Translations under genes and position numbers: made by a program
Notes under the pieces: generated by a model
Seen by the model: the letters and a program-made list of their open reading frames with translations, nothing else
The model's database searches: none
Told to the model about the DNA's origin: nothing
NCBI GenBank assembly: GCA_958009085.1
Contig: OY253668.1
Span: 930,001-994,000, forward strand
Reading direction: 5' to 3'
From: Protoeuglena noctilucae
Lineage: Eukaryota
Length of the DNA: 64,000 bases
In this document: positions 20,296 through 62,789 of the stretch, in pieces
Layout: every line of letters starts with the position of its first letter
Position numbering within the stretch: the first letter of the stretch is position 1

Positions 20296-20744
20296 GGCTG
20301 CCACGCTCGAGGAGGGGGGACACGCGCAGGCCCGCATCGCGGCTCGATGAGCGAATTGGCGCCCCGACGCGCCGGCCCGTCGCCTCCGGCTGTCAGCTAT
20401 CGAGCAACTGGTGGGGACCAGAGGTGGATGTCGGCACACAATCGCGCACGCAGTCAGCTCGGGCCAGCGGAGGACGTGGGCCCACCCGTTCGCTCCCAAA
20501 AACTACGGAGCGACTTTTTTTTGCCAATGAAAATTGCGTGTCGAGCAGCCTTGGGGGATCTTTTCGAACATCGGGCTTGCCGCCCCCCGAGTCAGCCCAC
20601 CTGTCACCTCAGGTAGGGCCCCTCCCCATGACGGCGACCGACCTCAAGGTCAAGGTCACTTTAAAAATGACATCCGGCGATGTCATTCATCGGAGCCTAA
20701 CACACACACGCAGCAAGGTGCACACTCGAGACGACTGTCCCTCG

Positions 20745-23700
20745 CTACAGGACCTCAACGACGCAGCAGGGCGTCCCCGCGCACGCCCATGCCCCGCCCC
20801 GCACCCAGTCGCTCCAGTCGCAGGCTTGTTTGGAGCCCTTGAGATGCACGATGAGAACGGCCGAGGGGTCGTGTCCCCGAGGCGCTAGCACCAGCATCGA
20901 GTCCCCGTGCCAGGCCAGCGTCACGGCGTCCAGGGCCGCCTCGTCCACCTGCCTGCCGTCCCGGTCCCACACACGCATCGTCTCGCTCTCAGAGTAGCTC
21001 GTCAGGGTGTCCGTCGCCTCGTCGAAGCGGAGTCCGGTGATCTGAGAGGAGCAACGGAGGCAGGGCAGAGATGAACCGGGGCACCTTGGACCGCACAGCG
21101 GCTGGCAGCCGTGCCAACCGCATCCGCCCTCCCCAGTCACCTTGCGTGCGTGCCTGCCATGCTCGGCGACGGCAGTCTTGCTCGCGACGTCCCACAGCCA
21201 CACCGACCCGTCGGCGGCCCCGCTACCGAGGCGAGCCCCGTCAGCGGAGAAGGCGAGGACCTGCACCGTGGCCTGGTGGCCCTCGAGGGAGCCCACGAGG
21301 CGGCGGTCGGCCACGCTCCACAGGTGCACGGCGCGGTCCGCGGATCCGCTCGCGAGGAGCGAGGCGTCTGGGCTGAACGTGAGGCTGCGGACGACGGCCG
21401 CGTGCCCGGCCAGGGCGCCGAGGAGCACCCCCGTGCGTGCCGCCCAGACGCGCACCGACGTGTCCTCCGAACCGCACGCCACCATCTGCGGGGAGGGCGA
21501 CAACCTAGGAGCCCGTCAGCGGATCCCCGACCAACGGGGGAGCCGGGAACGGCGGCTCCCCCGTCGTCACGCTGCGCGCCGCGAGCTGGGCTGGCGGGGT
21601 CACACCTCGCCGGTCCGGGACAGGGTCAGGGCGGTGATGGCCTTGGTGTGCCCGGTGCATGCCGCCACCGGTTGGAACGTGGCCGCGTCCCACGTGCGCG
21701 CCACGCGGTCAGGGGACGCCGTGGCAAACAGACCCCCCGCCCCCTCGGCCGTGGCCAGGAGCGTGACGCCGTCCGCGTGGCCCGACAGCGTGGCGCGCTT
21801 GTTGGGCTGCGCGGGGTTCCACACGATGGCCGTGTTGTCCCAGGAGGTGGAGACGAGGAAGCCGGTGGGCGAGCCGGGCACGGGGCAGAACGCCACGGCC
21901 GTCACGGCGCCCTGGTGGCACCCGGCGCCGCCCTGGGCCGCGTCGGCGGGGGACTTCTCCGAGACCACCTTGCCCATCGCAGCGTCCCAGACCACCACGC
22001 GGCCGTCGCTGAAGCCCGTGGCCACCAGCGACCCGTCGCAGCTCACGGCCGCCGCGCGCAGATGGAAGCTCGTGTCGCTGTCCTGGCGCCGCGTGGCCTG
22101 CAGGTCCCACATCCGCACGCTGCCGTCCACGGCCCCCGACACCAGCCTGCGCCAGTCGGACCCGAAGACCACCGACGACACTGCGGGGGAGGTGTGTTGA
22201 TGGAGCATGCAATCCTGTTCCTGGTCAGAGCGTCTCTGCAGCGCAGCGAGGCAACTGCAACAGCCGACGAGACCCTCACCAGCGCTCTTGTGGCCCCTCA
22301 GCTCGTGGAGCATCTGCAGCTTGGGCCGCACTTGCCAGACCTGGATGGTCCGGTCCTGGGACGCCGTGGCGATGACGTTGCCGTCCGCGCTGACGGCCAC
22401 GGCGTTGACCTCTCCGCGGTGTGCCACGTTGTCGCCCAGGGCCTGCGTCAGGCCGACCGGGCCCAGCTTCCAGAAGCTGACGCGGCGGTCCCAGGACGCG
22501 GAGATGAGGAGCGCGCAAGCGCGCTCGTAGACGAGGCAGCTGACGGAATCCTGGTGCGCCTCCCGCGTCACGAGGGCGCCGTCGGGGAGGCGCGTGATGC
22601 CGATGGCCTGGTCCCACGAGGCGGTGGCCAGCGTGGCGTCGTCGATGAAGACCACGTTGCTCACGACCTGCCGGTGCTCCGGGATGGCCCTGACCAGGGC
22701 GGCCCCGTCCGCGGCCCACACGCGCACCGTCGTGTCCTCGCTCCCCGCGGCGAGGTGCTGCCCGCCGGCGCTGAAGGCCAGGCACGTGACGCGCTCCTTG
22801 GAGCCATCGAGCGCCCGGAGGGCCTCGCCCGTCTCGGCGCTCCACAGCCGCACCATGTGGTCGTCCGACCCCGACGCCAGCAAGGGCCGCAAGGGGTGGA
22901 AGCAAACGCAGGACACGCGCCCGCTGTGCCCCTGCAGCGTGTGCCGGTGCTCCCCGCTCGTGGCGTCCCACAGGCACAGCGTGCAGTCCCACGACGCGGA
23001 GGCCAGCACTGCGCCGTCCGGGCTGAAGGCCGCATCGGAGACCTGCGCCTTGTGGCGCCGCAGGACGCTGCGCACGGCCCCGGACAGGCCGTCCCAGAGG
23101 CGCACCGTGGCGTCGCTCGACGCCGTGGCGAGCGTGAGGCCGTCCGGGCTGAACAGAACCTTGGTGATGGCCCGCGCGTGGCCCTGCAGCACGGCGCTGT
23201 TTGGCAGCACCTCCATCCCCCGCACCACGTGCATCCCCCCGCCGCCCTTCCACCGCCGCCCCGCCGCCGCCCGGTGCACCCAGGTCTCCGGGGGAGCCAG
23301 CAGCGCAAAGTCCTCCGCCCGGTCCGGGCACTGCCCGAGCAGCCCCGCAAACGTCCGCAGCCACCCGCGCGTCTCGGCCAGCATGGCCGCCGCGCCGCCC
23401 CGGCCCTTGAGGGCATCCTCCGTGGCGCTGACCAGCCCCACGAGGCGCCCCACCTCCTGGCCCTCCACGCACGCGCGCAGGAACCCCAGCGACGTGCACG
23501 CCTCCTGAGCCAGCTCCGGGCGGCCCCCCTCCAGCGCGTGGGAGACGAAGTGCCGCACGCAGTAAGGGCCCAGCCGCGCGAGCGAGTCGCCGTCCGCGCC
23601 CCCCGCGCCCAGCTCCCGGACTCGCGCGGCCCACGCCGTGGCGTGCACCACGTGGGCTCTGCCCTGGTCGACGTGCCAGGGGCTGTCCTAGTCCTGGAGC

Positions 23701-26700
23701 AGCCAGTCCACGACCGACTTGTGGAAGGGCGCCACGAGGCCCCACGCGTCGACGGGAAAGAGCGACCCGAGGCCGTCGACGGCCGCCTCCACGTCCGCCG
23801 CCGCCGCGCCGGGCCCGGCCAGGTGATGCAGGTCGGCGACGCGCAGGGGCTCGCGGGCCACGGCGATGGCGGGGAGGAGGCGGTCGCGCACGATGGACTG
23901 GGCGGCCGGGGACAGGGCCCCGGACGCGAACTGTCGATTGAGGTACTCCGCGTAGAGGTGGCGGTGGCCCTCCGGGAGGTCCCCCAGGGTCAGGTGGCTC
24001 ATGCCGCCCGCGTCCCGCTGCACCATGCGCACCACGGCAGCCACGTACGCGAAGACGCCCTCCGACCGCTTCTGGATGAGGTCCGTGATGGCCAGCACCT
24101 TGTCCTCGCCCAGGTCCGCGCGCAGGCTCCCCCGGATGAAGGCGCGGATGTCAGCGATGTTCCGCAGCTCGTTCGGGCGCAGCATGAAGGGCCGATAGCC
24201 CTCTAGGCGTTTGACGATGTAGTTCTCAGGGCGGCTCGTGACCTGGGTGCACGGGCACACGGGCGAGCGTCCCGGCCAAGATCGCCCGTCGTTGCGAGCC
24301 CGCGTCTCTGCGGCGTGCCCGGCGGCCTCTCACCAGCATGCGGACCCAGCTCGGCAGGTTCTGCAGCTCCCCCTGCAGCAGCGACAGGAGCTCGTTGTTC
24401 CGGTCGTGGGTCCCCGCCTCGTCCACCGCGTCAATCACGATGACCTGGTCGTCCTGGTCACCAAGGGCCACCAGCGGCTCCACGAGCAGCCTGCGAGAAG
24501 CACAGGCCCTTGGGTAGGTGCGGCCAAGGCGGGGAGGGCTGCGGCTGAGCTGAGACGAGAGTGGACAGACCAGCGACGATTAGTACATGATGCTGTCTCG
24601 TGACCACATGAGCCTCACCTCCTGCACAGTTCCGTGGCCGTCCCCTCGAGCCCCCCCTCCTCCATCACCCGGACGTAGATGAGCGAAAGCGCCTCGGGGA
24701 TGCGCGACGCCACCTGTACACGGGACCGGACCGGCCATTGGCCTTGATAGATAAGGCAGCCGCAGCGCACTCGCCACTCCTGCCGCGCCGCCGCTCGCCT
24801 GATACACGATTGACTGGATGATGCTGCGCGCGTCCGAGCGGGCCTCGTCCCCAGCCCGACAGAAGTGGCCAGCCAGGAGGAGCTCCTCGTCCTCGAGGAC
24901 CTCTGTCATGTGCGCGGCAAACTGCAAGAATCACGGGGGACCATGATGTGGTATGTGCCACGCCAGCCCCGTCGCATCTCGTGTCGCCCCACCGCGCGCC
25001 GCCACTCACGGCCGTCTTGCCCATGCCAGGAAGAGAGAGGAGGAGGAACATGCGGCTGTTCCACTCCTCCGCCACCTCCCCATTCGCCCACGCCAGCACG
25101 TCGTCCCTCAGCCACTCCCGTGTGCCCTGCATGAACCCCGCTGACCGGACGGACGCGTCCTCCGTGATGGCGATCGGGCGCAGGGCGGCGCTCAGGCGGG
25201 CCAGCATCACGGCCGGGGGAACCGGGGCGGCGTCGGCGGACACCTCCACGGGCGCCCTCCCCGAGGTGACGGGGACCACCCTGCGCTCCGAGATGACCGG
25301 CACTGCCTGGCGCGTCTTGGGCGCTGACGGTGGCGCCGGCGCGCGGGGTGGGAGCTCCCCTGCGGCGTCACCCTTGTTCTCCGCAATGCCACGCCTGACG
25401 CCCTTGCGCCCGCCCTCCCCATCGGAGGTCGGCCCCTCTGCTTGCCCCTGCCGCGCCGCCGCAGAGGCGCCATCCATGACCGTGGTTGCCTGGGCCGCCG
25501 CAACGAAGTTGACGGACGACACGGGCGCCGCGAGGCTGCGGCTGCTGGCCCGCTCGGTGGGCATGCGGCGCATGTTCTTCCCCCCACCCATCTGGGCCGC
25601 CGTGTTCTGAGCCGCCAGGGCGACCATGTGCACGAACTGGATGCACTCGCGCAGCCCGACCTCGTCATCCGGCTTCAGCGCCCTTTGCGCCAACCTGCCC
25701 AGCGCCCGCAGACTGTCCGCCTTCACTATTCCATCCGGCGCCAGGCGCACCCGCATGTAGTCCTCGAAAAACTTGCGTATCTCCGGGTCCCTCAGCGTAC
25801 CACTGCTCCAGGCCCTCCAGGCACTCGAGCCCTCCCACCCCGGCCGCCGGCAACAGGAACATCATGAAGAGCTCCCACGACACACTGTCGTCGCCCAGCC
25901 CCATGCCCCTCTCCCCCTTCCACAGCTCCCGCAGGGGACCCGGCAGCGCCTCCACTGTGGGGTGGCTCTGCATGACGTCCCGCAGGCGCATCTCCATCGT
26001 CCCCATCGCGCCCAGAAGGAGCTGCTCCCCCGGGCTCAGGTCCTGAAACACCACCGCCAGGAGGTCCTTGTCCCCAGCCACGCGCTGGGCGTCCTCCAGC
26101 GTCAGCGCGGCGCCGTCCTTGACTCCCGCCGCCGCCACCAGGCTCTCGTGCGCCTGCCTCGCGGAGAAGAACTGGCCCGTCTCGAGCAGGGTCCGCAGCT
26201 CCCGCATGTCCTGCGCCACGCTCACGCCCACGTCCGCCGTCAACAGGCTCAACGCCTCCATGATCTTGGCGGCGATCTCTTGCAGGCCCGCCTTGTCCGG
26301 AGACGCTTTCAGGAACCGACCCACCCACGAGCGGTTCCGCACCTCCTGGACCAGACTCTCGCCCTCCTTCACCCACTCTGCGGGCCGGGGACGAGAGGAG
26401 CAGCTCTGCAAGTGCATGTCCGGCTGCTTGCAGGCGCAGCGCGGCCCCCACGCGCACCGAGCAAGTTCTTGAGCGTCTCCAGGTGGGAGCCGAGCGCGTT
26501 GTGGGCCCGGATGACGACGCCCATGGCCCGCTTGCACAGACTGGCGAAGTCGTGGCACACGGCCCGGACGTCCGCGGCCTGCAGTCAGCTCAGAGCGAGG
26601 CATGGGTGCATTGTGAAGAGTCTAGCTCTAGCTACCTCGCTACCTCGTCTATCGTATGGCCGAACGAAGGCGGGCCTGGGCGCCCGTGGGGGCATCGGCG

Positions 26701-27809
26701 CGGCTCACTTCTGCCACCGCAGCAAGGATCTTGGAGGTGAGCTTGGCGAGGGGCGCCACGAACGGACAGCTCTCCAGAACGCTCAGCACCTCGGTCGTGA
26801 CCCTGGAAAACAGGTCCACCACCTCCCCCACCAGCTCGTTGTTCTGCGAATAGGCGACCGCTGCCCCGGTGTCTGGGCGACGTGGCAGCGCGCAGCGATG
26901 ATGGCCCCGGGAGCTGATGCGCTGTGGCGTCCAGGGCAGTCCCTGTCTCCAAGCACCAGCGCCAGGGTGCATGCGACCCACCTTGACGAGCTCCCCAAGC
27001 GGTTCGAGGGGAGACAAGAATTCTTCTACCTTGGCCAGCTGCTCGTTCAGCTCGTCCGCCTTGCCGTACAGCTCCGCGGCCTTGTTGACGGCCTGGGACA
27101 CGGCGCGCACAGACTTGGCGTTCCGCTTGTCCACTTGCGTCTTGTCAGGAGGACGCTCCGTGCCTTCCCCGGCGCCCCCTTCCGTGAACTTCACCCCCTT
27201 GGCGACCTTCCTTGGAGAAAAAGACCGGAGCTTGTCCTGCAGGTCCATGGCGTTGATGTCCGACACCCCGTGCTTGGCCAGGACCTCCACCAGGTCCCCG
27301 CGGTTCAGGAAACCTCTGCGAGCAGGCTTGCAGGGCAGGCAGGCTTGGGTGCGCACACCCACCCGGGCAAGCCCGGCAGACATGCCTCGCCGCTCCTCCC
27401 TCCCATGCAGGTGGCATGAGTGGCTGGACCCCGGCGCGGGGTGGGCGGGTGCCCGTTCGTCACACAAACGGAACGTGACGCAGGAGCCCCCAACGCAACG
27501 CCCTCACCCAAGCGAGGCATGAGTGAACTGCTTCTGTCTGGCGATGTTCTCCAGGCTCCCCAGGTGGACATCGTGCAGCCACTGAACGAAGTCTTCTACG
27601 CTTGCTCGCCTGCAGGCCAGGACAGAGCAGAATGGAGCTACGATTGAGGACACCGTTTGGAATTTATCAAAGCTTGAGATACCCCATAACAAGCAGTCGG
27701 CTATAGCCAACACACGCCGGCAACGAGCTCTTCCGTCCCCCAGCATGCCCGGCGCTCACCCGGGCTCCACCACGGCCCCTTCGGCACTCTTGCTGTTGGA
27801 GCATCCCAT
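20745..27809 (-). pseudogene. NLR-like STAND gene (MGCxxSK - SAM-like - MLKL/RPW8-like four-helix bundle - NACHT - about 14-15 WD40), interrupted in this sequence
   Basis: NACHT motifs: GTREWL, Walker A SLPGMGKTA, HFC, Walker B VIVIDAVDEA, VTSRP, SEGVFAY and FHKSVVDWL. These are followed by GH...WD repeats. There is an in-frame TAG at 23688-23690 and a frame change near 25795. Domain identity is confident; pseudogene status is not. Confidence 0.75.
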
Positions 27810-28231
27810 GGTGATGGAACAACGCAACTCAGTCCAACGGGGTAATACGCAATTGCGCCGCAGCGGTGCCGCACCGCACGGCACCGAGCATCTGTGCCCG
27901 CTTAAGGCCCAGCGACCCGGAAAAGCCGGACGCCGAGGCCAGCGTGCAGCAGTTTAGACAATCCGTGTGCTGCGGACAACGGCGTTCTGCAAGGGCCAAT
28001 GACGGGGAAGCCCTCGCATGCCCAAAACAGATGTCCCTGGCGCCGCATGCAAGTGCCAAAAACGTCCCAGGCAATGATCGGATCCCCGTATCCAAAGCGG
28101 CGCCCCTGATATCCTGGCGCAGTCTACCGCACCCATCCTCACCGCACCCATCCTCACCTCCTCGAATCCTCAGAGGCACTCCTTTTTATTGCACACACTG
28201 AGCGGTGGCCGCTCGAAGTCGGTGGCCCAAC

Positions 28232-29418
28232 ATGTCCTCCTTATATGCCATGCCCGTCCTGTTCCTCAGCCTGGGCGCTGAGCTGCTGTTTATTGTTCAG
28301 CAGAGCCTCGTTCAACAGGTGCGAGACGCGGCAGGCCCGCTGGCTGGGCAGTGCTGGAGCGTGGCGGGCCTGGGCGCTGATTCATCTTCGTTCTTCCAAG
28401 TTCGTTCTCCTAAGTTCGTTCTCCCAAGCTCGTTCTCCCTGCAGAACGTCCCAACAGCCAAGAAGTCGACGGTTTTGGACGGCATGATTTGCACAATGTT
28501 CGACGAGTCCTTCATCGCGGAGATATTCGAGCCGCAGCGCACCTTTTCGCAGACGAGCATGATGGGCCTGTTCAACCGCATCGCTCACTCGTCCACGATG
28601 CGCCTCAACTCCGGCAGCAAAGGCGCCATCCATGACCGCATGAACATCGCCCTCAAGCACATGGTGAGCGCCTGGCTCGTGAGTGTGGTTCGCTGGGCCG
28701 TGGATAATGGCCATAGAATGCGTGCTGCGCGCCGTCACACGCAGGCGATCCTCGTGGAGAGTCCAGCCAACCTGGCCAACTGCGTGCTGCTGCTGTTGGA
28801 GCAGCTCTCCGGCATTTGCTCCAGCCCCCGGACCCGCGAACTGCTTGCGAGTATCCGCTACCGCTTTCTGGAGTTCGCCGCCAGCATGACCCCGATGGAT
28901 TGGGTGTCGATACGGCAGACTATTCTGCGCTTCACGCACCAGCCGGCCGGGCCCAGGAAGATCGACCAGTTGTTTTGCGCGGTGAGGCCAGGAGGGGCCC
29001 CATGTCGTGCTTGGCCCCAGTCCCGAGGGGGCTGCTGGAGCACCGATTCATTGATAGGAGCCTCTGACCTGTCCTCCGCAGGAGGGCATCCAGGCGGACG
29101 ATGGCACCTTCTTCCTCAAACGGCCCGTGCCAGCACATGGCGTGCCCGTCGGCACCTGGAAAGTGTTCGACGTTCGGGCTGGCGTGATCAACGAGGGGCA
29201 TGCTCAGTTGTCCAAAGTGGCGACCAGGTGTGACATGCACGGGAGGTGGCTTTCGAAAGATGTCTCACATACATGTCAATTCTTCTGGCTTCGTACTTCG
29301 CAGGGCGGATTACTGGAGCACGCATCCCGACGAGCTGGGGACGAATTACCGGAGCCCCACGAGGACCAAGTACACAGGGACCACGCCGAAAAGGGTCGAG
29401 CTGGTGCACCGTCTCTAG
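28232..29418 (+). CDS. OSCP1: Organic solute carrier partner 1 (OSCP1) family protein
   Basis: AMPVLFLSLGAELLFIVQQSL..|NVPTAKKSTVLDGMICTMF..EIFEPQ..LFNRIAHSSTMRLN is colinear with the OSCP1 N-terminus, and LGTN occurs near the end. Five exons with GT-AG introns. Confidence 0.85.
28387..28442 (+). repeat. 14-bp minisatellite (ttcgttctcccaag-like) x4 in OSCP1 intron 1
   Basis: Units ttcgttcttccaag, ttcgttctcctaag, ttcgttctcccaag and ctcgttctccctgc lie immediately before the acceptor AG. Confidence 0.85.
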
Positions 29419-29808: not shown

Positions 29809-32800
29809 ATGGACGCCTTGGAGATCCCATGGCGAGAGCTCGAGTTCGGGGGGGACATCGGGGGCGGCGTGTTTGGGGACGTGGTGAGTTGAACGCTGTG
29901 CGAGGTGGACGGCGCACGGCACCGGGCGTTGCGTCCCAAGAGGCTCACGTGCCCGCGGCGCGCATCCGCAGGTCTCAGCGCAATGGCGCGGGGCTGGGGT
30001 AGCTGTCAAGGTCCTGGGCGTGGACACATCGGGCGTCTCCAAGGCCAACCTGCAGCGCGGCATTCGCCTGCTGGCAGAGCTTGTCCGGGCCTCGCAGCGG
30101 TGCCCGCATGCTTGCCGTGTGCACGGAATCTCGCGTCAAGGAACGCGAGTCGCCCTCGTCTCTGAGCGCATGCCCTCTTCCCTCCTAAGGGAGTTGGCGA
30201 GGACCGGCACGCTCCCACTTCCCGCGGCCCTCAGGTGATGCAGGCTCCGCACCCGCGAAGGAGGTCGCTAGCTCGCTTCCTTCCTGTCCATCGTATGATC
30301 AGGTGGGGCAGCATGCCTCGTCGGGAGAAAGGGTGGCGCGTGCGAAAAAGAGGTGCGTAATCAGCCGACATCAGTGGGCACAGTGGCCGGACCCGCCGCC
30401 GGATACCCCCGCAGAGTTATGCGGGACATTCTATGTGGGGTTCAAGAGCTGCACGCGGCCGGAGTAGTCCATTTGGACGTCAAGCCTGCCAACGTGCTGC
30501 TGGACAGCGCCGGCGGGGCGCGTCTCAGCGATGCCGGCCTCGCCGCGTGCCTGGGGGGCGCCATGGGTGCCACGACGCGCGCTTCAGCCATCGCCACGCT
30601 TGAGTACTGTCCCCCGGAGCAGATGGACGCGGGGGCGGCGGAGTGCGGGCCCCCCGCCGACGTCTGGGCCGCCGCCGCCACGCTCTGCCATGCCCTCGCG
30701 GGCGAGCGGCCATTCGCAGGGATGCGCCCGCAGCAGATCGCCGCTGCCGTCCTCCTGCAGGGGAGGCACCCGGACGTCCCCGAGAACCTCCCACAGCCCC
30801 TCAGGTCCGCGGCCTCTGCCCAGTACCCTTGGCGCGCCCGGCATTGCATGCCCCGACTACGCGCGCACCTAGCTGCGCTCTCCTGCGACCGCCTGCTGAC
30901 CCACCCGTCCACGACTGCCACCCTCAGATCCCTCGTCCTCCACTCCTTCGCCCCCTCGCCCTCGAGCCGCCCCACGCCTGCCGAGCTCATCGCAGCCATC
31001 GACGAAGTGCTGGCCTCGCCCGCGCCCCGGGTCCCCCCACCCGCGACCGCACCCGCCGGCCTACCCGTGGGAGCGCCCGTCACAGCGCCCATCAAGATCA
31101 ACACGGTGGTGCCCAGCCCTGTGCCCGTGGCCGCCCTCACGTCGGCGCTGTCCGCCACCGCCCTCAGCCCCGGCTCGCCCCACGCTGCCACGTCCCCCCG
31201 GGCCGCCTTCTCGGCGGGCGCCGGGCAGAGTTCGATCTCTGCGTCCACGCTGGACGACCTGGGGGCGGCGGTGGCTGTGCTGGCTGGCGGGGGGGACGCA
31301 ATGGAGGCGCTGCGGCTGGCGTGTCGCGAGTACCGAGCGAGGGCGCAGGGCCGGGGTCGGGGGCACCCTACGTGCAGGCGAGGGCCGGACGGGCGACGGG
31401 CTGGGCGTGAAACCGCGCCGTTTCACGAGCTTGCGCTGTTTGGGAGAACACTGCACGCTCGTGACCTTCGCGCAGGCCTGCTGCGCTGGTGGCGGCGGCG
31501 GCGGCGACGCGGCTCGCGGGCCGGGAGGACGCCCTGGCGGAGGTGCGCGGTTCGATGCTGCCGCTGTGGGTGTACGGCCCCATCTCGCCCTGCAGCATCA
31601 TCCAGGGCCACTGGAACACCGTGAACGCCGTCGCCTTCTCCCCCGACGGCGCCTCGCTCGTCTCTGCCAGCGACGACAAGACCCTCCGGTGCGGGTCTGG
31701 GCTGAGGGGGCTCTGGGTGGCCGCGGCTACGGCGCATGACTGGACGGCTCGTGACTGCCTTGTCGACGCAGGCTCTGGGACGTGGCGAGTGGCAAGCAGC
31801 GGAGCATTTTGCAGGGGCACCGCAACCCCGTCCACGCCGTGGCGTACAGCGCCGACGGGGCTGCCGTTGTGTCGGGGGACGAGGACGGGGACATCAAGGC
31901 GCGTGCGGCCGCGCGGTGCTCCGCCAGGAACCCCATGCCCGGGGCCTTGCGCAACAGATCGCGTCGTGCGCCGCGCCCACAGGTGTGGGACCCGGTGAGC
32001 GGCGAGTGCCGCACAACGCACCGCAGCCCCGACGGCCCCGTGGCATCGCTGTCGCTGAGCCCGGACGGGGCGCGGCTGGCCACGGCAGGTGGCGTGCTGG
32101 TCGCGCGTGTGTGGGACCTGGCCGGCGGGACCGTGAGCGTCACCCTGGAGGGCCACACCGCCCCCGTCACCTGTGTCGCCTTCTCTCCCGATGGGGCCAC
32201 GGTGGCGACCGGAAGCCGCGACCGCACCGCCGCGCTCTGGTCGGCGTCGGACGGGGCGTGCCGCGCGCGGCTGTCTGGGCACGGCGACGCCCTCCTCTGC
32301 GTGGCATTCGACCGGTCGGGGGCGCTCCTGGCCACCGGGGGCGCGGACGGCACAGCCGTGGTGTGGGACGCCGCCAAGGGCGCTGAGCTCGTGTCGCTGC
32401 GCGGCCACGTCGGGGCCGTCCTCTCGATCGCCTTCTCCCCAGACGGGTCGCTCGTCGGCACGGGCGGGGACGACTACACGGTCCGGTGACACGCTGGCAT
32501 GGCGGGGACCGCGGTTTGTCCCTGTCAAATCTTGTGCCAGTCGACGAGGCTCTTGCATTGATTCCTTGTCCAGCACATCCACCGGAGCCCCCCGCTGCCT
32601 GGCTTTCGCTGTTCCTCGTGCCCCACGGGCCATCACCCCACCACGGCCCCTGCTTCCAGGTTTTGGGAGCTCCCCTCCGGTGCCCAGCGCGCCCTTCTCC
32701 AGGGCCACGGCGACCGCGTCACGGGGGTCGCCTTCAGCCCCGACGGCGCCACGCTGGCGTCGGCGAGCGAGGACGACGCCGTGCGCGTGTGGGGGGTGCC

Positions 32801-43695: not shown

Positions 43696-46600
43696 ATGGA
43701 AGCGAGTCGCTTGACCCGCGGTTGTCGACGCTGCGCTGCAGGTTCCCGGCGCGTCGCTTATCGAAGCCCGCGCGGCGCGCTGCGGGTGGAGGCGCGTCTG
43801 CTACCCAGCCGGAATCTACAGCGTCAACTCCTGAACCAGCTCGCGCTGCGACAATCGCAAGCGAGGGAGAAGAAGGAGGCGGAGGGGAGGAAACCTGCCC
43901 GGCAAGGCTCTACGCCCGACGAGAGGCCCTCGGCGGACGGCATCGGCGCGCGGAAAGGATCTGCGACCACTGTACGGTCGGAAACGGCCATCGCGCCCCG
44001 AGACCCCGCCGCACTGGGCTCCAGCGCGACGGCAGAGGGCGGCGCACAGGGCGTGGCAAGGGATGAGGCGGCCGCGGCCGCAGCTGCAGCGCAGCAGCTG
44101 TTTCTGGAGGACCCTGTGGCCATAACGCAGCGCGAGATCGCGGAGGCGGTCGGGGAGCCCGCGCCGGTTCTCTGGGCGGAGAGCCCCCTTGCGCCACCCC
44201 CGGCTCCGGAGTTCCCGCGACCCGGGCTGGCCGGACTGTGGCAGCGCTTCAGTCGGTCCGGATTCGTGGATCCCGGCACGGTCACGGATGTGGCGCCGGC
44301 CCAGCAGAGGGCCCCCGAGGAGCAGGCGAGTGACACAGCGCGCACATGCGTGGGACGGCCCGGTGTCGCCTCCTCTGTGGCAGCCAGAATCGCAGCGGCC
44401 CCCGCACCCGCAGCGTGCGTCCATGGGGTCTCCGACGGCGGACGAGGCGCCCACGCTGGACCGTGGGGCGGCGAACGAAATGAGGGGACCTGCGCCTGGC
44501 ATTGCTCCGCCCCCTGCCGTGCCAGTGGCGGTGACGATAGAAGCACCACCCGCCCCCCCATCGCCCGACAAGCCCGCCTCAGCCAAGCCGGCTGCTGTCC
44601 CGCTGCCGGTGCCACCCCTGACTGCGCCCTCTGGCCGCCCCCAATGGCGCCCCGGGTCCGTGGAGGACTTCCTGGAGAGGGAGGGCGTGCCGGCGCCGCT
44701 GATCGAGGACTGCGTGCGCCGCATCGTGGCGTGGCGCGTGACCAAGCTGGGCCGCGTGCTGGTGGACCGGCGGAGGAGGAACCGCGTGGAGAGGAATATG
44801 GTCGAGGTGAGGCGTGACGTGGGTGGGGGTGGTAAAGCGGAGAGGAACATGGTCGAGGTGAGGCGTGACGTGGGTGGGGGTGGTAAAGTGGAGAGGAAGA
44901 TGGTCGAGGTGAGGCGTGACGTGGGTGGGGGTGATAAAGCGGAGAGGAATAGGGCGAACAGATGATGCGTGGCGTGTTGTTGGGCGGAATGGGAAGGGGA
45001 CGTAGTGCAGCTGACGGTTACAAACACGCCTGTCGTACCGCGACCTGCGGCCGCTGCATGACGCCCCCCCTCTCCTCACCTCTCCCCAGGCGGCAGAGTA
45101 CCTGGAGAGAGCGTGCGGGGTCCCCCGTGGCCCCCACGGCGTGGGCCGCCTGCTGTCCGACACCCCCATGGTGCTGCTGTGCAAGGCGTCGCTCAACGAC
45201 CGATGGGACAGGCGCGCCCTGGAGCTGGCGGCGTACAAGCACCACCACGGGCACTGGTGAGCGCTGGAAGTGTGGCACGGCCGCTGCGCAGGGGGTGCTG
45301 GTGACAGAGATTGAGAGTGCTTGGGGCTGTTACGCATCCCTGCCAGCACGCACCCCATGCCTGTGCTCCTGTGCCCCACACCTGCACACCGTGTCCCTTC
45401 CCCAGCAACGTCCCCGAGGACTGGCCAGGCAACCCGGAGCTGTCGAGTTGGCTCCGTCGCCAGTACGTGGCAGTGGCGCAGGGGACGCTGAGCCCCGAGC
45501 GCACGGCAGTGCTGGACGACATTGGAGTGAGCTTCGAGGTGGTGCAGCAGGTGACGCGGGTGGGGCCACGGGGAACAGCGACTGCGCGTCAATGCCAGCG
45601 AGTCACGCCCACCATGTGCCACCCCACCGTTCTACCCCCCACCCCACGCAAGGCACTTCTCCCTACCCCGCAGATCACCACGGACTGGGAGGCCCACTTC
45701 GACCTCCTCCTCGACCTCCGCAGCGCCTTCTCCGACCGCCACGCCCCCTTCCCCTGGGACACCGCGCCGTGGATGCTCGTGCCGGACCCAGCCCTGTGGG
45801 ACCTGGCGCACTGGCTGGAGCTGCAGAGGGCTATGCGCACGCGGGGGCTGGCCACGGCCGACGCCGTGGGGCGTCTCACGGCAACGCAGGCCGAGTGGGC
45901 GCCCCAGAGGGCCGAGGGGGCGGGGGGTTGGATGGCCACCTATGTGGAGCTCGTCTACCACCACTACCGGTGCGTGGGTGACTTGGCGTGGTTGTCCATG
46001 AGCGTGTTGTGTGTGTGTTGCTTGTCTACCACAACTACCAGTGCGTGGATGGTCGCCCATGAGCGTGGCGGACAGTCCCACTCTCTGCCACCGCGCAACC
46101 CAACCCCCAACCCCAACCGCCCGCAGTCACGAGCAGGCCCTTCTCTCCCGCGAGGCTCTGCAGCAGGCCAAGGGGCCCAAGGGGTACGGGTCATCGCGCA
46201 CGGACGGCACGGCAGGGCAGTTGGCGGACGTGGTGCGGGTGCCAGGGACGTTTGTGGAGTGGCTGCCGCGAGCGAAGGGGACTGCGGGGGTGCTGCTGGC
46301 GGGGAGCGGGGGAGGTGGTGCGGGGCGTGGGGGCGAGGGGCACCGACCGAGGACTCAGGTGACGGGCAGTGGTGCACGGTTTGCAAACCACCGCGTGTTT
46401 GGTCCGTGGCCGCTCTCGCCATCTGTCGCTCTCTCCTCTGCACTGACACCTGCCGACTTTATCTCTCATCTCATGCCCCCAGGTGGATGCGCCCGTGCGT
46501 GCCGTGGGCGTGATGCAGGCACTGGCGGCCGACACCCCCGCCCAGGAAGAGAGGGGCTGGGAGGGGGCGGAGGTCATGGACATGAACCCCACGAGGGCGT

Positions 46601-58278: not shown

Positions 58279-60343
58279 AGCTTTAAAAGGACAGGGCCGG
58301 AAGCGGCCTATGCGGCTAGTTGAGAAAACGTGCCATGGGACGAAAAACCGGGACATAAGCGAAGCACGCAAACCGTGACATGAGGCTGGCGCCGAAAGAA
58401 GCCCGGGGCCGCGCCCCCGATGCAATTGCGCGGGAGTTGGGATGGACGGTGGAATGGATGCACGTGTGGCAGATGCCTGGACGGCCGCGCTGGATGTGTG
58501 CAGGAGCCAGGCTCTAGGAAGTGCATCTGAGGGGCACGAGCGCCTGGGCTGATGGCCGGGAAACGTGCGGCCGCGCTAGAAGAGTACACTCGAGGACGAG
58601 CTAGGCTAGGGCAAAAGGCGCCCACTAGCACCTGGGAGGTGCGGAGTGCGGTGGAACAGGGAAAGCAAGGCACGCTAGCATGTGCCTGTGCCTGGAAAGG
58701 ACTGATCGCCTCCACTGCCCCGTCCGCTGCTGTTGTGCGGGAGTCGGAGCGAACGCATTGCTGCCCCGGTCGGGGCCTCGTAACTGATTGGGGCCCATTG
58801 GGGCCCGTGGGCTGCGGGCAGCCCTCCATAGCCATCTGCCGCAAGACACGAGGGCGTCAGACGCGGCCCTCCTCAGTAACCCTGGGCTCTGCCTGATGGT
58901 GGCCGAAACACGCAAAGGCCCGCATCACACTGCGGAGGACGCCCCCGGGCGCACCGGGCCCCTTGCCTGGCCCCGACCGCGATCGCTCAGGGGGCTGCCC
59001 ACTCCCCAGGGTGGATTTCAAGGCCCCCGTCGGTGTTATTACGGGTGCTGCCCTTGCCCTGGCACGCGCCACCGTGGGTTGCCGAGGGGACTCGGCTGCG
59101 GGGGTGAGGCCGGGGGCAAGAATGGCTGACTTTAGACATGTGTGCATCGGCCATTGCCATTGCCATGACGTGCCCGCTGCCTGAATGAGCATTGCCGTGC
59201 CTGGCTGCCACCCTCACCCAAAGGGAGGCTCGGGGGTGCCCCGATGCCCATGCTGCTGAGGCGAAGGCGGCGCCTCTCAAACTCGTTCATGTTGCCCAGG
59301 GCGTCCGCCAAGCTCTCACGGTAGTGCCTGGACCCAGGTGGGCCGTCCTCAGAGTCTCTGGGGCGACACAGACGCAATGGATTGAATTGACGACGTGCCT
59401 AACTGCTCCATGCAGGCGCTTGCAAAGGCAACGCAGGGAAATGCTCACCGTCCTGAGCTTTGCGGCTCCAGCGTGTGGCTGTAGCGTGGGCTCGGTCCGT
59501 CCTTCGTGTCTTCGTTAAGTGTCGTTTAAGCGTGCTGGTGGCGTGGCTGCCACTTGGGAGACGACCACGAACGCGTCTGCGGATGGGGATTCCGTTTGAA
59601 TGAGAGGCGCATTATGCTGGCATCATGCACGATAGGCGCAGTTATGCTGCCGCTCGTCACCGGCGGAGGCTTGGGTGGCCTGGCCTGGCGTCTGGGCTCG
59701 TGATGAGCCGTGGTTCCCGAGCCATGACTCTCGCCAACGCGAACCTCAACAGTCCGCAGCGGAATCGATGCGTCATTTGGTTCCCGCGAAGGCATTTGCC
59801 CGCCCCCGAGGGAGCTCGTCAGATTTTGCTGTGGCCCACCCAGCCGTGAGAGCGCCACCAGCGCCGGGTCGCGGCTAGCGCCGCTGCCCCGCGTCTCCCG
59901 AATGGTTCTCAAGCTCGACGACCTGAGCGTAGGCCCCTTAACGCCCTGCTCCGACATTGCTCGTCGCCGCTGCCCCTGCCCCAAGTGCGTCACGCGCCTC
60001 TCAGCGAGGACCGCAGAAGGCCTTCCCGCCCCCTCCTCACAGATTCTTACGCGAAAAATAGTAACGGGAGCCATGCCGATGGCGGGCGAGCTTGTCGGTG
60101 GAGAGCTTCAGAGCACCGCGGCTGTCAGGCGCACGGGCACGTGACAAGTGGCGTCGGGCCCCGCGCTGTCCATTCGCCAAGGCGTTGACCCGATTGCCTT
60201 TCGTTTATCAAATACATTCAATGACGCACGCCAAAGGCGGTCCTGTGAGGCTCCAGGCGGCATCCTGTGACAAGGGTTCGCGTCTGCCTGGCGCCTGCTG
60301 CTACTGGCGAGAGTGCGGCGGCGGGTGCGCCGGGGGCGTCCCC

Positions 60344-62789
60344 TCAGCCCCACCGCGCTCGCTTCCCGACGGCCGTGGCGCTCTGGATGTGCTCGGCGCC
60401 CGCCCTGCCCCGTGGCCGTCCTGGCTGCTCTGGCCGCTGCGGCGAAGGACGCAGCGCCGCCTCGCTCGCTGCTGCCGCGTCCCCACCGCCGTTTTGTTTG
60501 CAGCAAGCCCAGGCCCTCACCTCTTCGTCCTGCGACCCCAGGGCCTGCCGCGGGCGCGCCGCGGGTCCCTCGGCCGCGGGGGGCGTCGTGGGCGCCAGTC
60601 GCGCCTCGGACAGCACCGCCGCCAGCACCTGGTACGACCCGGACCGCATGAACGCCGAGCGGTGGCGGAGGGGGGCCTGGGGTGGAGAGGGGGGGGCTGG
60701 GAGGGATCGGCGCGCAGGGAGGGCCGAAGGTCAGCCCACTCCTTCTCACTTCCTGCCGATGAGGAGGGCTGTTGCTTCCCACCCATGCGTATCCCCTACC
60801 CTCTCTTGCACAGCAGCGGCCCGCTCCCGCCCTCGCCTTGAAAGGGCTCGCGCGCAGGGTGGCCACGACCACTGACACATTGTCCGTGGTCCCCCGGGCG
60901 CAGGCCTCCAGGGCCAGGTGCCGGGCGCATGCCTCCGGGTCCCAGCTGCTGCGCAGGAATATCTTGGCCTGCTCCACGGCCCTGCGGCTGTCCATCACGT
61001 CCCACAGGCCGTCGCACGCCAGGATGAGGAAGTCGTTCTCCGCCTGCAGCGCCACGCTCGACACCTCGGGGCGGCCCAGGATCATGCCCTCCTGCTTCTC
61101 CACCATGTGCCAGTCCCTGGGGGTGGGGGAGGGGTCGGGGCGTGTCGGCGCGGCGCTGCAGCGAGCGGTGGGCGCGCGAGCCAGTGCAACACAGGCGCCA
61201 GGTCGCTCACCCCAAGGCGCGGCTGACCCCGATGTGCGAGTTCAGGAACCCCTCGGAGCTGACGTGCCCGCCCAGCCGCTCGATGCGTGCGCGCTCCGAG
61301 GCCTGCACTGGCTTGTGGTCCACTGCGGTGCGGGGGAAGGGCCGGGGTTCGCAGACTGCCTCGCGTCTGCCTTGCAACGAAGTCACCAGACGCGACGCGG
61401 CATGCCACAGATCGGAGCTACCATTGGTCGCCCTGCCCCACGCCGCGACGGCCGAGCGAAGCGGCTCACCCGTCAGCGGCACGGCGCGCCCCCTGCGCGA
61501 GAGCACGGCGCGGCAGTCCCCGCAGTTGGCCAGCCACAGCGTCGAGCCCCACACCACGCACGCCAACCCCGTCGTCCCCGCCACCGCCTCGTCCGGCTCC
61601 CCCCGCGACGCCTCCCGCAGCTCCTCGTCCGTGCGCTCAAATGCGCCCCGCAGCGCCCCACCCATGTCCGCGGGGAAGTGCGGGCTGCGCACCAGGTGCC
61701 CCGCCAGCGCGTCGGCCGCGTACCTCGCCGCGCCGTCGCCGTTGTGGCCGTCAAACACGGCCGCAAAGCACCGGGGGGGCGCCCGCTCGCCCCCTGCCTG
61801 GCTCGCCGCCCCGCTGCCCTCCGCGCCCGCCCCGTCGTCGCTCAGCGGGCCCTGACTCAACATCGACGTCGACACGTCCGCGTCCGGCCCCAACTCGCCC
61901 GCCCCATCCGCCCCCGCCCTCGCTTCCGAAAAAGGCACGGCCCACGAGGCGGGCACCGGGGCCCTGACGGGCAGCAGCGCCGCCAGGTCCGACAAAAGAC
62001 ACGTGGCGTCCTCCATGGTCGGCCTGCCGCCCACCTCGGCCCAGAAGCCCAGCCTCACGTAAGGCTGCAGGAAGAGAGGCGCAGTTTTAGGGGAAGGTCT
62101 GTGCAAGCTGAGGATCGACCACCGCCCTTCCCGGGACCACTAGACCCAAGGCATGCCTCGCTGCATCCCCAGCAGCCCCTCACCATGTAGTCGGCCCCGT
62201 CGCCGTCGCGGTGCATCGTCGTCAAGTCCACCACCGACGCTTGCGGGGTCAAGTCGACCGACGTGTCGAGGCCCCCCTCGCTCGCCAGGTCCGCCGCGCT
62301 GTCCTCCGCCCGTATTCGCCCCACGTGCGCCGAGGCAGCGCTGTCACGCCGGCTGTGGCCCACGCTGGGAACCGCGCTCGCCCGATGCGACGCGCCCTCC
62401 CCCGGCGTGCCGGGCACCGACTCGCCGCCCGGCGCCCCACGCGGCGTGCCCCGCGGCGGGAGGCCGGGCGAGTCCACGTCCGCGCTGTCAGTAAAGCGGA
62501 GGGACATGCGCGGGTGCACGCCGCCCTCAAAGGCCGCTAGGTCCTGGAGGTGCGGGGGCCGGTAGGGACGGACCCCGCCCGCCCGCGACGCCTCGCTCGA
62601 GGTGCTCGGCGCGGCCGCGCCACCCACGCGGGCCGGCTCGCGGGCCGGCGCGGCCCCAAAGCCATCGCGTGGCAGCAAAGGGCCCGCCTCCGCGCCGGAG
62701 CCCGAAGACGAGCGCACGCTCGGGGTCTCCAGGCGCGAGACAGTCTCGTCTCCGCGGATGCGGTCTATAGGCGCCGAGACCGATCCCAT
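60344..62789 (-). CDS. Protein phosphatase 2C (PPM family) with disordered N-terminal extension (start uncertain)
   Basis: GGRPTMED, VFDGHNG, GTT, ANCGDCRAVL, DHKP, VSRALG|D, LILACDGLWDVM and DNVSVVV motifs are spread over spliced exons. Confidence 0.95.

Follow-up and report, generated by a model that had tools for sequence, protein, structure and literature searches.

The 64,000-nucleotide (nt) stretch of the Protoeuglena noctilucae assembly GCA_958009085.1 analysed here (contig OY253668.1, positions 930,001 to 994,000 of the forward strand; hereafter the window, numbered from its first letter) holds a receptor gene on its minus strand, at 27809-20745. We read this gene, with a probability of about 0.6, as a copy, transcribed but disrupted and most likely a pseudogene, of a small eukaryotic family of nucleoside triphosphatases (NTPases) of the STAND class (ATPases of signal transduction that carry numerous domains). 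An intact member of the family would carry, in order, a lipid-anchor motif, a small helical module, a bundle homologous to the N-terminal domain of MLKL (HeLo/HELL/RPW8 superfamily), ~250 residues of conserved helical sequence, a linker of low complexity, a NACHT domain and ~15 WD40 repeats amounting to two propellers. A sequence-only reading of the same DNA had proposed a self-contained sensor-switch-executor. The order that it gave, in which an MLKL-type helical module precedes NACHT and WD40, is supported by motifs, Pfam matches and homologs; the window copy as sequenced, with a frameshift and an in-frame TAG that had gone unnoticed, cannot encode such a protein.

Gene structure and the two lesions

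The gene, rebuilt by hand and with a script, has 14 exons and 12 introns of 64-192 nt, all canonical GT..AG introns whose donors are mostly GTGAG and whose acceptors are all CAG. Its reading begins with MGCSNSK in exon 1 (27809-27760; ATG at 27809 in the context caccATGG, donor GTGAGC), proceeds through exon 2 (27609-27508, followed by an intron at 27507-27316, GTGAGG..TCGCAG), exon 3 (27315-26982), exon 4 (26843-26709) and exon 5 (26578-26458), and ends at a TAG at 20747-20745, all coordinates of the gene being on the minus strand. The peptides quoted in the sequence-only reading were all found where it had placed them, including the landmarks MGCSNSK from 27809, exon 2 from 27609 and exon 4 from 26843.

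Transcription and splicing of the 3' part are observed directly. RNA contigs of the metatranscriptome run X11 skip exactly 21042-21140 and 22181-22279, giving the joints 21041>21141 and 22180>22280, each of which removes 99 nt with GT..AG ends on the minus strand; these are two of the three introns in the WD40 part (22279-22181, 21605-21486 and 21140-21042). Further upstream, the junctions E3|E4, E4|E5 and E5|E6 show protein continuity with P0010, an unspliced member of a set of five homologs (P0006 to P0010) described below: spliced residues 144-400 align to P0010 residues 17-279 at an E value of 6e-31, gapless at all three junctions. The ..AAVAE|AADVR.. and ..KNLL|EWVKEG.. junctions have GT..AG sites and are backed by the uninterrupted open reading frame (ORF) of P0010. 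Junctions E1|E2 and E2|E3 are placed by their canonical sites and open frames, and exon 1 has neither RNA nor homolog support. Contigs from the three RNA runs leave 24355-24868, 25640-25896, 26925-27438 and 27696-27952 uncovered. One RNA contig has a loose end at 27488 that matches nothing in the window, and was taken as a chimera or as the product of another locus. Three contigs of run X9 (records 29, 23 and 22, at 26400-26724, 21462-21965 and 20732-21147) follow the DNA without a break through modelled or proven introns, which indicates that unspliced RNA or DNA of the organism is present in the metatranscriptomes; collinear contigs therefore cannot rule out splicing.

One of the two lesions is a frameshift at 25802-25787, between the bundle and the NACHT domain. 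In tblastn searches P0006, P0007 and P0008 each align to the window as two pieces in different frames, meeting at 25816-25791 (query ranges 37-243/239-431, 4-232/229-320 and 1-206/202-272, respectively). Frame A reads ..LEGLEQWYAE and frame B reads TLRDPEIRKFFEDYMRVRLAPDG.. (TLRDPEIRKFF..LAPDG), both homologous to P0006-P0008, and because both frames are conserved and overlap on the DNA, we interpret the site as a frameshift and not as an intron. The one short GT..AG pair that would restore the frame, of 58 nt at 25838-25781, was rejected as an intron, as it would delete the conserved EQWY and its acceptor is GGAG, where the acceptors elsewhere are CAG. The spliced message as sequenced stops after 484 residues, without switch or sensor.

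The other lesion is an in-frame TAG at 23690-23688, in exon 11, between the NACHT domain and the WD40 repeats. It is preceded by ..FHKSVVDWLLQD (also given as ..APFHKSVVDWLLQD, ending WLLQD) and followed in the same frame by DSPWHVDQ.., and the frame past it continues without a stop for 695 codons, across the WD40 repeats. An assembly error seems an unlikely cause of either lesion, since a 90-kb contig from a labelled culture (run X5, record 15) is identical over the whole 7.7 kb, both lesions included, and the TAG region stands without a differing letter in two environmental RNA contigs (X10 record 5, 23028-23696, and X9 record 26, 23640-24064). One open reading frame for the full NACHT domain and the 14-15 WD40 repeats described earlier was not confirmed.

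The helical bundle and its homologs

The helical bundle region occupies residues ~115-305 (27125-26205), that is, the tail of exon 3 (27125-26982), exons 4 and 5, and the head of exon 6 (26377-26205). When 1.84 billion representatives were searched exhaustively with exon 6 by HMMER, seven proteins came out at E<=0.001, one of them the gene's own ORF. A word-index search with exon 6 against longer proteins found no homolog, a word-index search with P0010 found itself alone, and two scans of metagenome contigs, one of them with P0010, gave no match. The family is small and is known solely from unannotated assemblies, both marine and from other environments.

The homologs are informative as to domain order. 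P0010 holds the whole bundle in a single uninterrupted ORF; P0006 reads in one ORF from bundle helices 3-4 by way of the middle region and the linker to Walker A, up to LLMSLPGMGKTAVS; and P0007 and P0008 extend to the pre-NACHT motif. Judged from these reading frames, the fusion of bundle and NACHT domain is a feature of the family and not an artefact of the gene model. P0009 and P0010 are visibly poorer in Ala, Gly and Arg than are P0006-P0008 and the window gene, which suggests that the family also occurs in at least one less GC-rich organism. In P0009, in addition, ..ATEGRSGSKFGKTASVCLCSH.. is inserted where the window gene has its E5|E6 junction, and resembles an intron that was read through.

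The bundle is very probably homologous to the MLKL/HeLo superfamily. Pfam MLKL_N (PF22215; profile length 142, cut-off 27 bits) is the best Pfam match in four of the five homologs, scoring 26.9 bits (E 3.8e-6) in P0006, 22.1 bits in P0009, 18.4 bits in P0010 (over profile positions 29-120 of 142) and 14.5 bits in P0007; P0008, which begins past helix 3, has no MLKL_N match. Via P0010, profile positions 29-120 map to 26566-26205 of the window (residues ~185-305), with two or three extra helices (residues 115-184) ahead of this core. On its own, exon 6 reaches 12.3 bits (E 0.13), the domain being split over exons and not scored as a whole, and MLKL_N ranks third there, beneath sub-threshold L27 and SRP54_N. 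We set aside the Pfam matches to L27, SRP54_N, Spectrin_Anc-1, DUF5631 and PLC-beta_C, which lie below their cut-offs and are inconsistent among the homologs. The RPW8 and plant coiled-coil (CC) families of Pfam had no match at E up to 10 in the gene's exons or in the homologs.

The likeness to MLKL is also apparent in structure-derived sequences. When a profile of seven family sequences was searched against 177,635 PDB sequences, seven matches were obtained at E<=10, and the best six were MLKL N-terminal domains (6zvo, 6d74, 6zle, 6ux8 and 2msv at E 0.002-0.003, and 6lk5 at 0.015). The alignment places NR[ST]w.gRFl.A..D opposite NRSNICRFLTASQDK and covers the helix 3-helix 4 region, MLKL residues ~57-122; the motif NRSWVGRFLKAS..DK, which had been singled out earlier, aligns in this search to human MLKL residues ~60-121. 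In a language-model protein atlas, residues 1-200 of P0010 lie nearest to fungal clusters, one of which has MLKL_N on 36% of its members, and this may serve as a lead only. The MLKL-type bundle of the sequence-only reading is thus upheld as to its profile-level similarity and its place ahead of the NACHT domain, and falls short of the Pfam cut-off. By homology, a four-helix fold and a killing activity would be expected of it.

The remaining domains and the gene neighborhood

The N-terminal MGCSNSK is a predicted dual-acylation motif, with N-myristoylation of Gly2 and palmitoylation of Cys3, according to the general rules of N-myristoyltransferase and of palmitoylation at an adjacent cysteine. 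It is followed by a small module at residues ~18-83 (27609-27219), made of exon 2 and the first 97 bases of exon 3 (27315-27219). This module had been called a SAM domain, for which we found no support: in Pfam neither exon 2 nor exon 3 matched a SAM family at E up to 10, the two halves having been searched separately, with the lower sensitivity that comes with a domain split over two exons. Nor was any Pfam Ank family found in exons 2 and 3 at E up to 10. Searched against PDB with phmmer, exon 2 had one match, unrelated, and among 116 matches of exon 3 the best 60 were ankyrin-repeat designs or fusions of designed ankyrin repeat proteins (DARPins), matched via the DARPin part. Set against the ankyrin consensus ..IVEVLLKHGADVNA.D, DLVEVLAKHGVSDINAMD is identical to the DARPin repeat at 11 of 19 residues, over one repeat-length stretch; no individual stretch is significant, and the whole-sequence E of ~3e-5 is a sum over the repeats of the targets. 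A word-index protein search with exon 3 found no homolog of the module. There is a weak lead towards an ankyrin-like helix-loop.

Between the bundle and the NTPase lies a conserved middle region (26204-25600), ~250 residues long, helical and common to P0006-P0010, with the motifs LSPGEQ, LP..LRELW, EQWY and LAPDG. No Pfam family could be credibly assigned to it (L27 scores 17.4 bits, short of its cut-off), and it had no usable match in the protein atlas. A low-complexity linker separates it from the NTPase.

NTPases of this kind are recognised by a Walker A motif GxxxxGK[ST], a Walker B motif hhhhD[GAS]hDE and then a TSRP-type motif. The NACHT-type NTPase of the window gene (25204-23691) is spread over five exons, namely the end of exon 7, exons 8, 9 and 10 (24921-24778, 24713-24619 and 24490-24334) and exon 11 (from 24242), and has its motifs in order: Walker A GMGKTA at 25027 (25027-25010, at the end of exon 7), Walker B VIVIDAVDEA at 24444 (in exon 10) and LVTSRPE at 24336, with FHKSVVDWL after it, the last two listed with the TAG-bearing exon 11. 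Pfam NPHP3_N (cut-off 24.8) matches exon 8 with 19.6 bits (profile 39-80) and exon 10 with 21.0 bits (profile 114-160); each match is below the cut-off alone, and the two are collinear and together would exceed 24.8. The PF05729 NACHT model had no match on any single exon, and the C-terminal NACHT exon had no phmmer match in PDB.

A helical linker (23687-23190) leads from the TAG to the WD40 repeats (23189-20748; Pfam PF00400). Pfam marks 13 WD40 stretches on the four spliced 3' exons (6+4+3+0; whole-protein E values of 2.9e-61, 6.4e-18 and 4.2e-22), and ~15 can be counted by eye, which would be enough for two propellers. The repeats are not near-identical in DNA. The NACHT domain and 14-15 WD40 repeats described earlier are therefore borne out by the ordered motifs and the repeat counts, though not as one frame. 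A CCG/CCGCC-rich simple repeat at 23237-23272, in the linker between NACHT and WD40, codes for the glycine-rich RRWKGGGG.

The window as a whole has a G+C content of 61-74% throughout (also given as 65-74%), and its genes are eukaryotic and intron-rich. Together with the occurrence of the sequence in marine metagenomes, in metatranscriptomes and in a labelled culture, these traits make an algal host plausible. No second copy of the receptor gene was found in the 64 kb by tblastn with the five homologs. Upstream of the gene and divergent from it, an ORF at 28202-29230 on the plus strand matches Oscp1 (organic solute transport protein 1; E 9.9e-22). Exon-sized ORFs matching a protein kinase domain (30299-31621, plus strand, E 1e-21), a helicase-associated HA domain (45305-46510, plus strand, E 7e-10) and a PP2C phosphatase (60111-61241, minus strand, E 1e-17) were also present, and in the Pfam scan of 25 long window ORFs 20 others had no match, as is expected of spurious ORFs in GC-rich DNA.

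Alternative readings, a putative mechanism and known systems

At a probability of 0.6-0.65, the window copy is best read as a transcribed pseudogene that has presumably lost its function. Several observations weigh against our reading, and some of them would suit an intact gene, in which the lesions are spliced out, read through or confined to the sequenced lineage and the full receptor has ~1,890 residues. The culture and metagenome DNA runs that agree with the window are each flagged as a possible source of it, the frameshift lies in a stretch without RNA contig cover (25640-25896), and collinear RNA across the TAG is weak evidence where the libraries hold unspliced contigs. GT..AG pairs that would restore the frame are present at both lesions: the TAG could be spliced out by in-frame GT..CAG pairs spaced 48-198 nt, for example at 23745-23659, and an 88-nt GTACGC..ACAG pair at 25800-25713 could mend the frame, with loss of the conserved LAPDG stretch. 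The 3' part is, moreover, transcribed and correctly spliced at two joints, 695 open codons directly follow the TAG, and the other exons and splice sites all look undamaged. An intact gene nevertheless seems unlikely to us. Every frame-restoring intron deletes conserved residues (EQWY or LAPDG at the one lesion, FHKSVVDWL at the other), and the shortest candidates either fall below the length of all 12 modelled introns or end in acceptors other than CAG; both RNA contigs over the TAG (2/2) are collinear with the DNA, and the culture assembly carries the identical sequence, which metagenome runs also contain in full.

Other points bear on the bundle. No family member attains the MLKL_N cut-off, the gene's own exons reach just 12.3 bits, and the six PDB matches are essentially one protein. 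AlphaFold2 gave a mean pLDDT (predicted local distance difference test) of 49.5 for P0010 (seven aligned sequences) and of 60.1 for residues 36-196 (eight sequences), both models being all-helical without confident packing and the latter having long hairpin-like helices where a compact bundle would be expected. Foldseek searches of both low-confidence models against PDB returned nothing at E<=0.001 and no MLKL among the matches shown; the BAR domains, SipB and efflux-pump hairpins that were shown are meaningless given such models. The bundle is also internal, with its MLKL_N core starting at ~residue 185. In MLKL, HET-S and ZAR1 the first helix must be free. The need for a free first helix, as set out in the available part of one account, is at odds with the internal position here (PMC10197012). 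The helical region could instead be a scaffold or coiled-coil oligomerisation domain, and the protein a non-immune STAND NTPase of the NPHP3/NWD1/TEP1 type, for instance a lipid-anchored signalling or flagellar scaffold. Its NTPase pieces match NPHP3_N and not classical NACHT, and NPHP3 itself is an N-myristoylated protein with a coiled coil before its NTPase; the long paired helices of the low-confidence model, the sub-threshold MLKL_N scores and the lack, among the WD40 repeats, of the near-identical, shuffling-prone structure of fungal non-self receptors point the same way. However, the NPHP3_N model also matches the NTPases of many fungal receptors of the nucleotide-binding and leucine-rich repeat type (NLRs), so that it provides no argument for a ciliary role. 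With MLKL_N the top Pfam match in 4/5 homologs, and MLKL the top PDB match of the family profile via the helix 3-4 loop motif, we regard a scaffold as doubtful. Much less probable again are two adjacent genes, with the N-terminal exons on a separate transcript from the NACHT-WD40 part. No single RNA contig joins both parts, and the frameshift ends the N-terminal part alone at residue 484, yet a single ORF of P0006 runs from helices 3-4 through the middle region and the linker to Walker A, those of P0007 and P0008 get as far as the pre-NACHT motif, and homology to the three passes straight over the frameshift.

If the window gene is indeed the broken copy of a STAND NTPase with an MLKL-type bundle, a mechanism for intact members can be borrowed from fungal HeLo-like NLRs, plant CC/RPW8 NLRs and MLKL (PMC10197012 and PMC9815663, in the parts available to us, and otherwise general knowledge). 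The WD40 propellers would keep the protein closed until ligand binding, upon which the NACHT domain would exchange nucleotide and oligomerise. The clustered bundles, already anchored at the membrane by their acyl groups, would then insert and permeabilise it, and cell death would follow, possibly aborting a viral infection. From the window copy no more than an anchored bundle could be made, lacking both switch and sensor. Turnover through the birth and death of genes is common in NLR families. We would venture, very tentatively, that marine phytoplankton have a family of single-chain receptors with a lipid anchor, whose WD40 sensing and NACHT oligomerisation directly deploy a membrane-breaking bundle of MLKL type, a necroptosis-like antiviral suicide switch outside animals, fungi and land plants. 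If so, broken copies such as this one might be what a rapid arms race of gene birth and death has left behind, or perhaps a source of bundle proteins that are free and constitutively anchored.

Cell death in phytoplankton blooms under viral attack shapes the flow of carbon in the ocean, and its executioners are largely unknown. An MLKL-type bundle wired to an algal NACHT-WD40 switch would be a concrete and testable candidate executioner. It would also extend the bundle-on-STAND-NTPase design of fungi and plants to another lineage, and thereby bear on whether that design is ancient or has been assembled repeatedly. The window locus is unsuited as a copy for functional tests, for which an intact paralog or ortholog, such as the source of P0006 or of P0010, would be preferable.

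Fungal HET-E/NWD genes have near-identical, shuffling WD40 repeats, unlike the diverged repeats of the window gene. Fungal NLRs more widely, as described in the available parts of two papers, join HeLo, HeLo-like (HELL), Goodbye-like or basidiomycete MLKL-like N-termini to NACHT or NB-ARC and to WD40, ANK or TPR repeats (PMC9815663, PMC10197012). The window gene resembles them in having an MLKL-related bundle, a NACHT-type NTPase and WD40 repeats in the same order, and its extra helices ahead of the core bundle recall those of the fungal Goodbye-like and basidiomycete MLKL-like domains, as far as the available text describes them (PMC9815663). SAM-type domains are noted on fungal NLRs too, in the same available text (PMC9815663). 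In contrast to the fungal proteins, the window gene puts a predicted acylation motif and a further small module before the bundle, and has ~250 conserved residues plus a low-complexity linker between bundle and NACHT; its host is marine, GC-rich and intron-rich, plausibly an alga, and the window copy is broken.

With the MLKL N-terminal domain (PF22215; 2msv, 6zvo, 6d74, 6ux8, 6zle) the family shares profile-level similarity across helices 2-4, the NRS..RFL.AS.DK stretch included. Unlike MLKL, the window protein has a STAND NTPase in place of a pseudokinase, and its bundle is internal, with sub-threshold scores and a putative fold. Plant RPW8/CC NLRs (ADR1/NRG1, ZAR1) and plant MLKLs are similar in having a bundle that is thought to act on membranes after oligomerisation, ahead of a STAND NTPase, and some plant CC-NLRs are N-acylated. 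The plant NLRs differ in their NTPase, which is NB-ARC where that of the window gene is NACHT/NPHP3_N, and in their repeats, which are leucine-rich repeats and not WD40.

Among algae, NACHT-WD40 proteins have been reported computationally in Chlamydomonas reinhardtii, according to the available part of that report (PMC4773052), and like the window gene they have NACHT and then C-terminal WD40 repeats. Compared by description only, they differ in that the available text describes no N-terminal effector domain for them (PMC4773052), whereas a putative one is present here. NACHT genes are induced in virus-resistant Gephyrocapsa, as stated in the available part of PMC12489294. In the open full-text literature, with subscription journals outside the scope, we found no algal NACHT protein described as carrying an MLKL-like domain. 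Thus, the logic of bundle, NACHT and WD40 is known from fungi, and what would be new in this family is the lineage, the acyl motif, the extra N-terminal module and the long conserved spacer.

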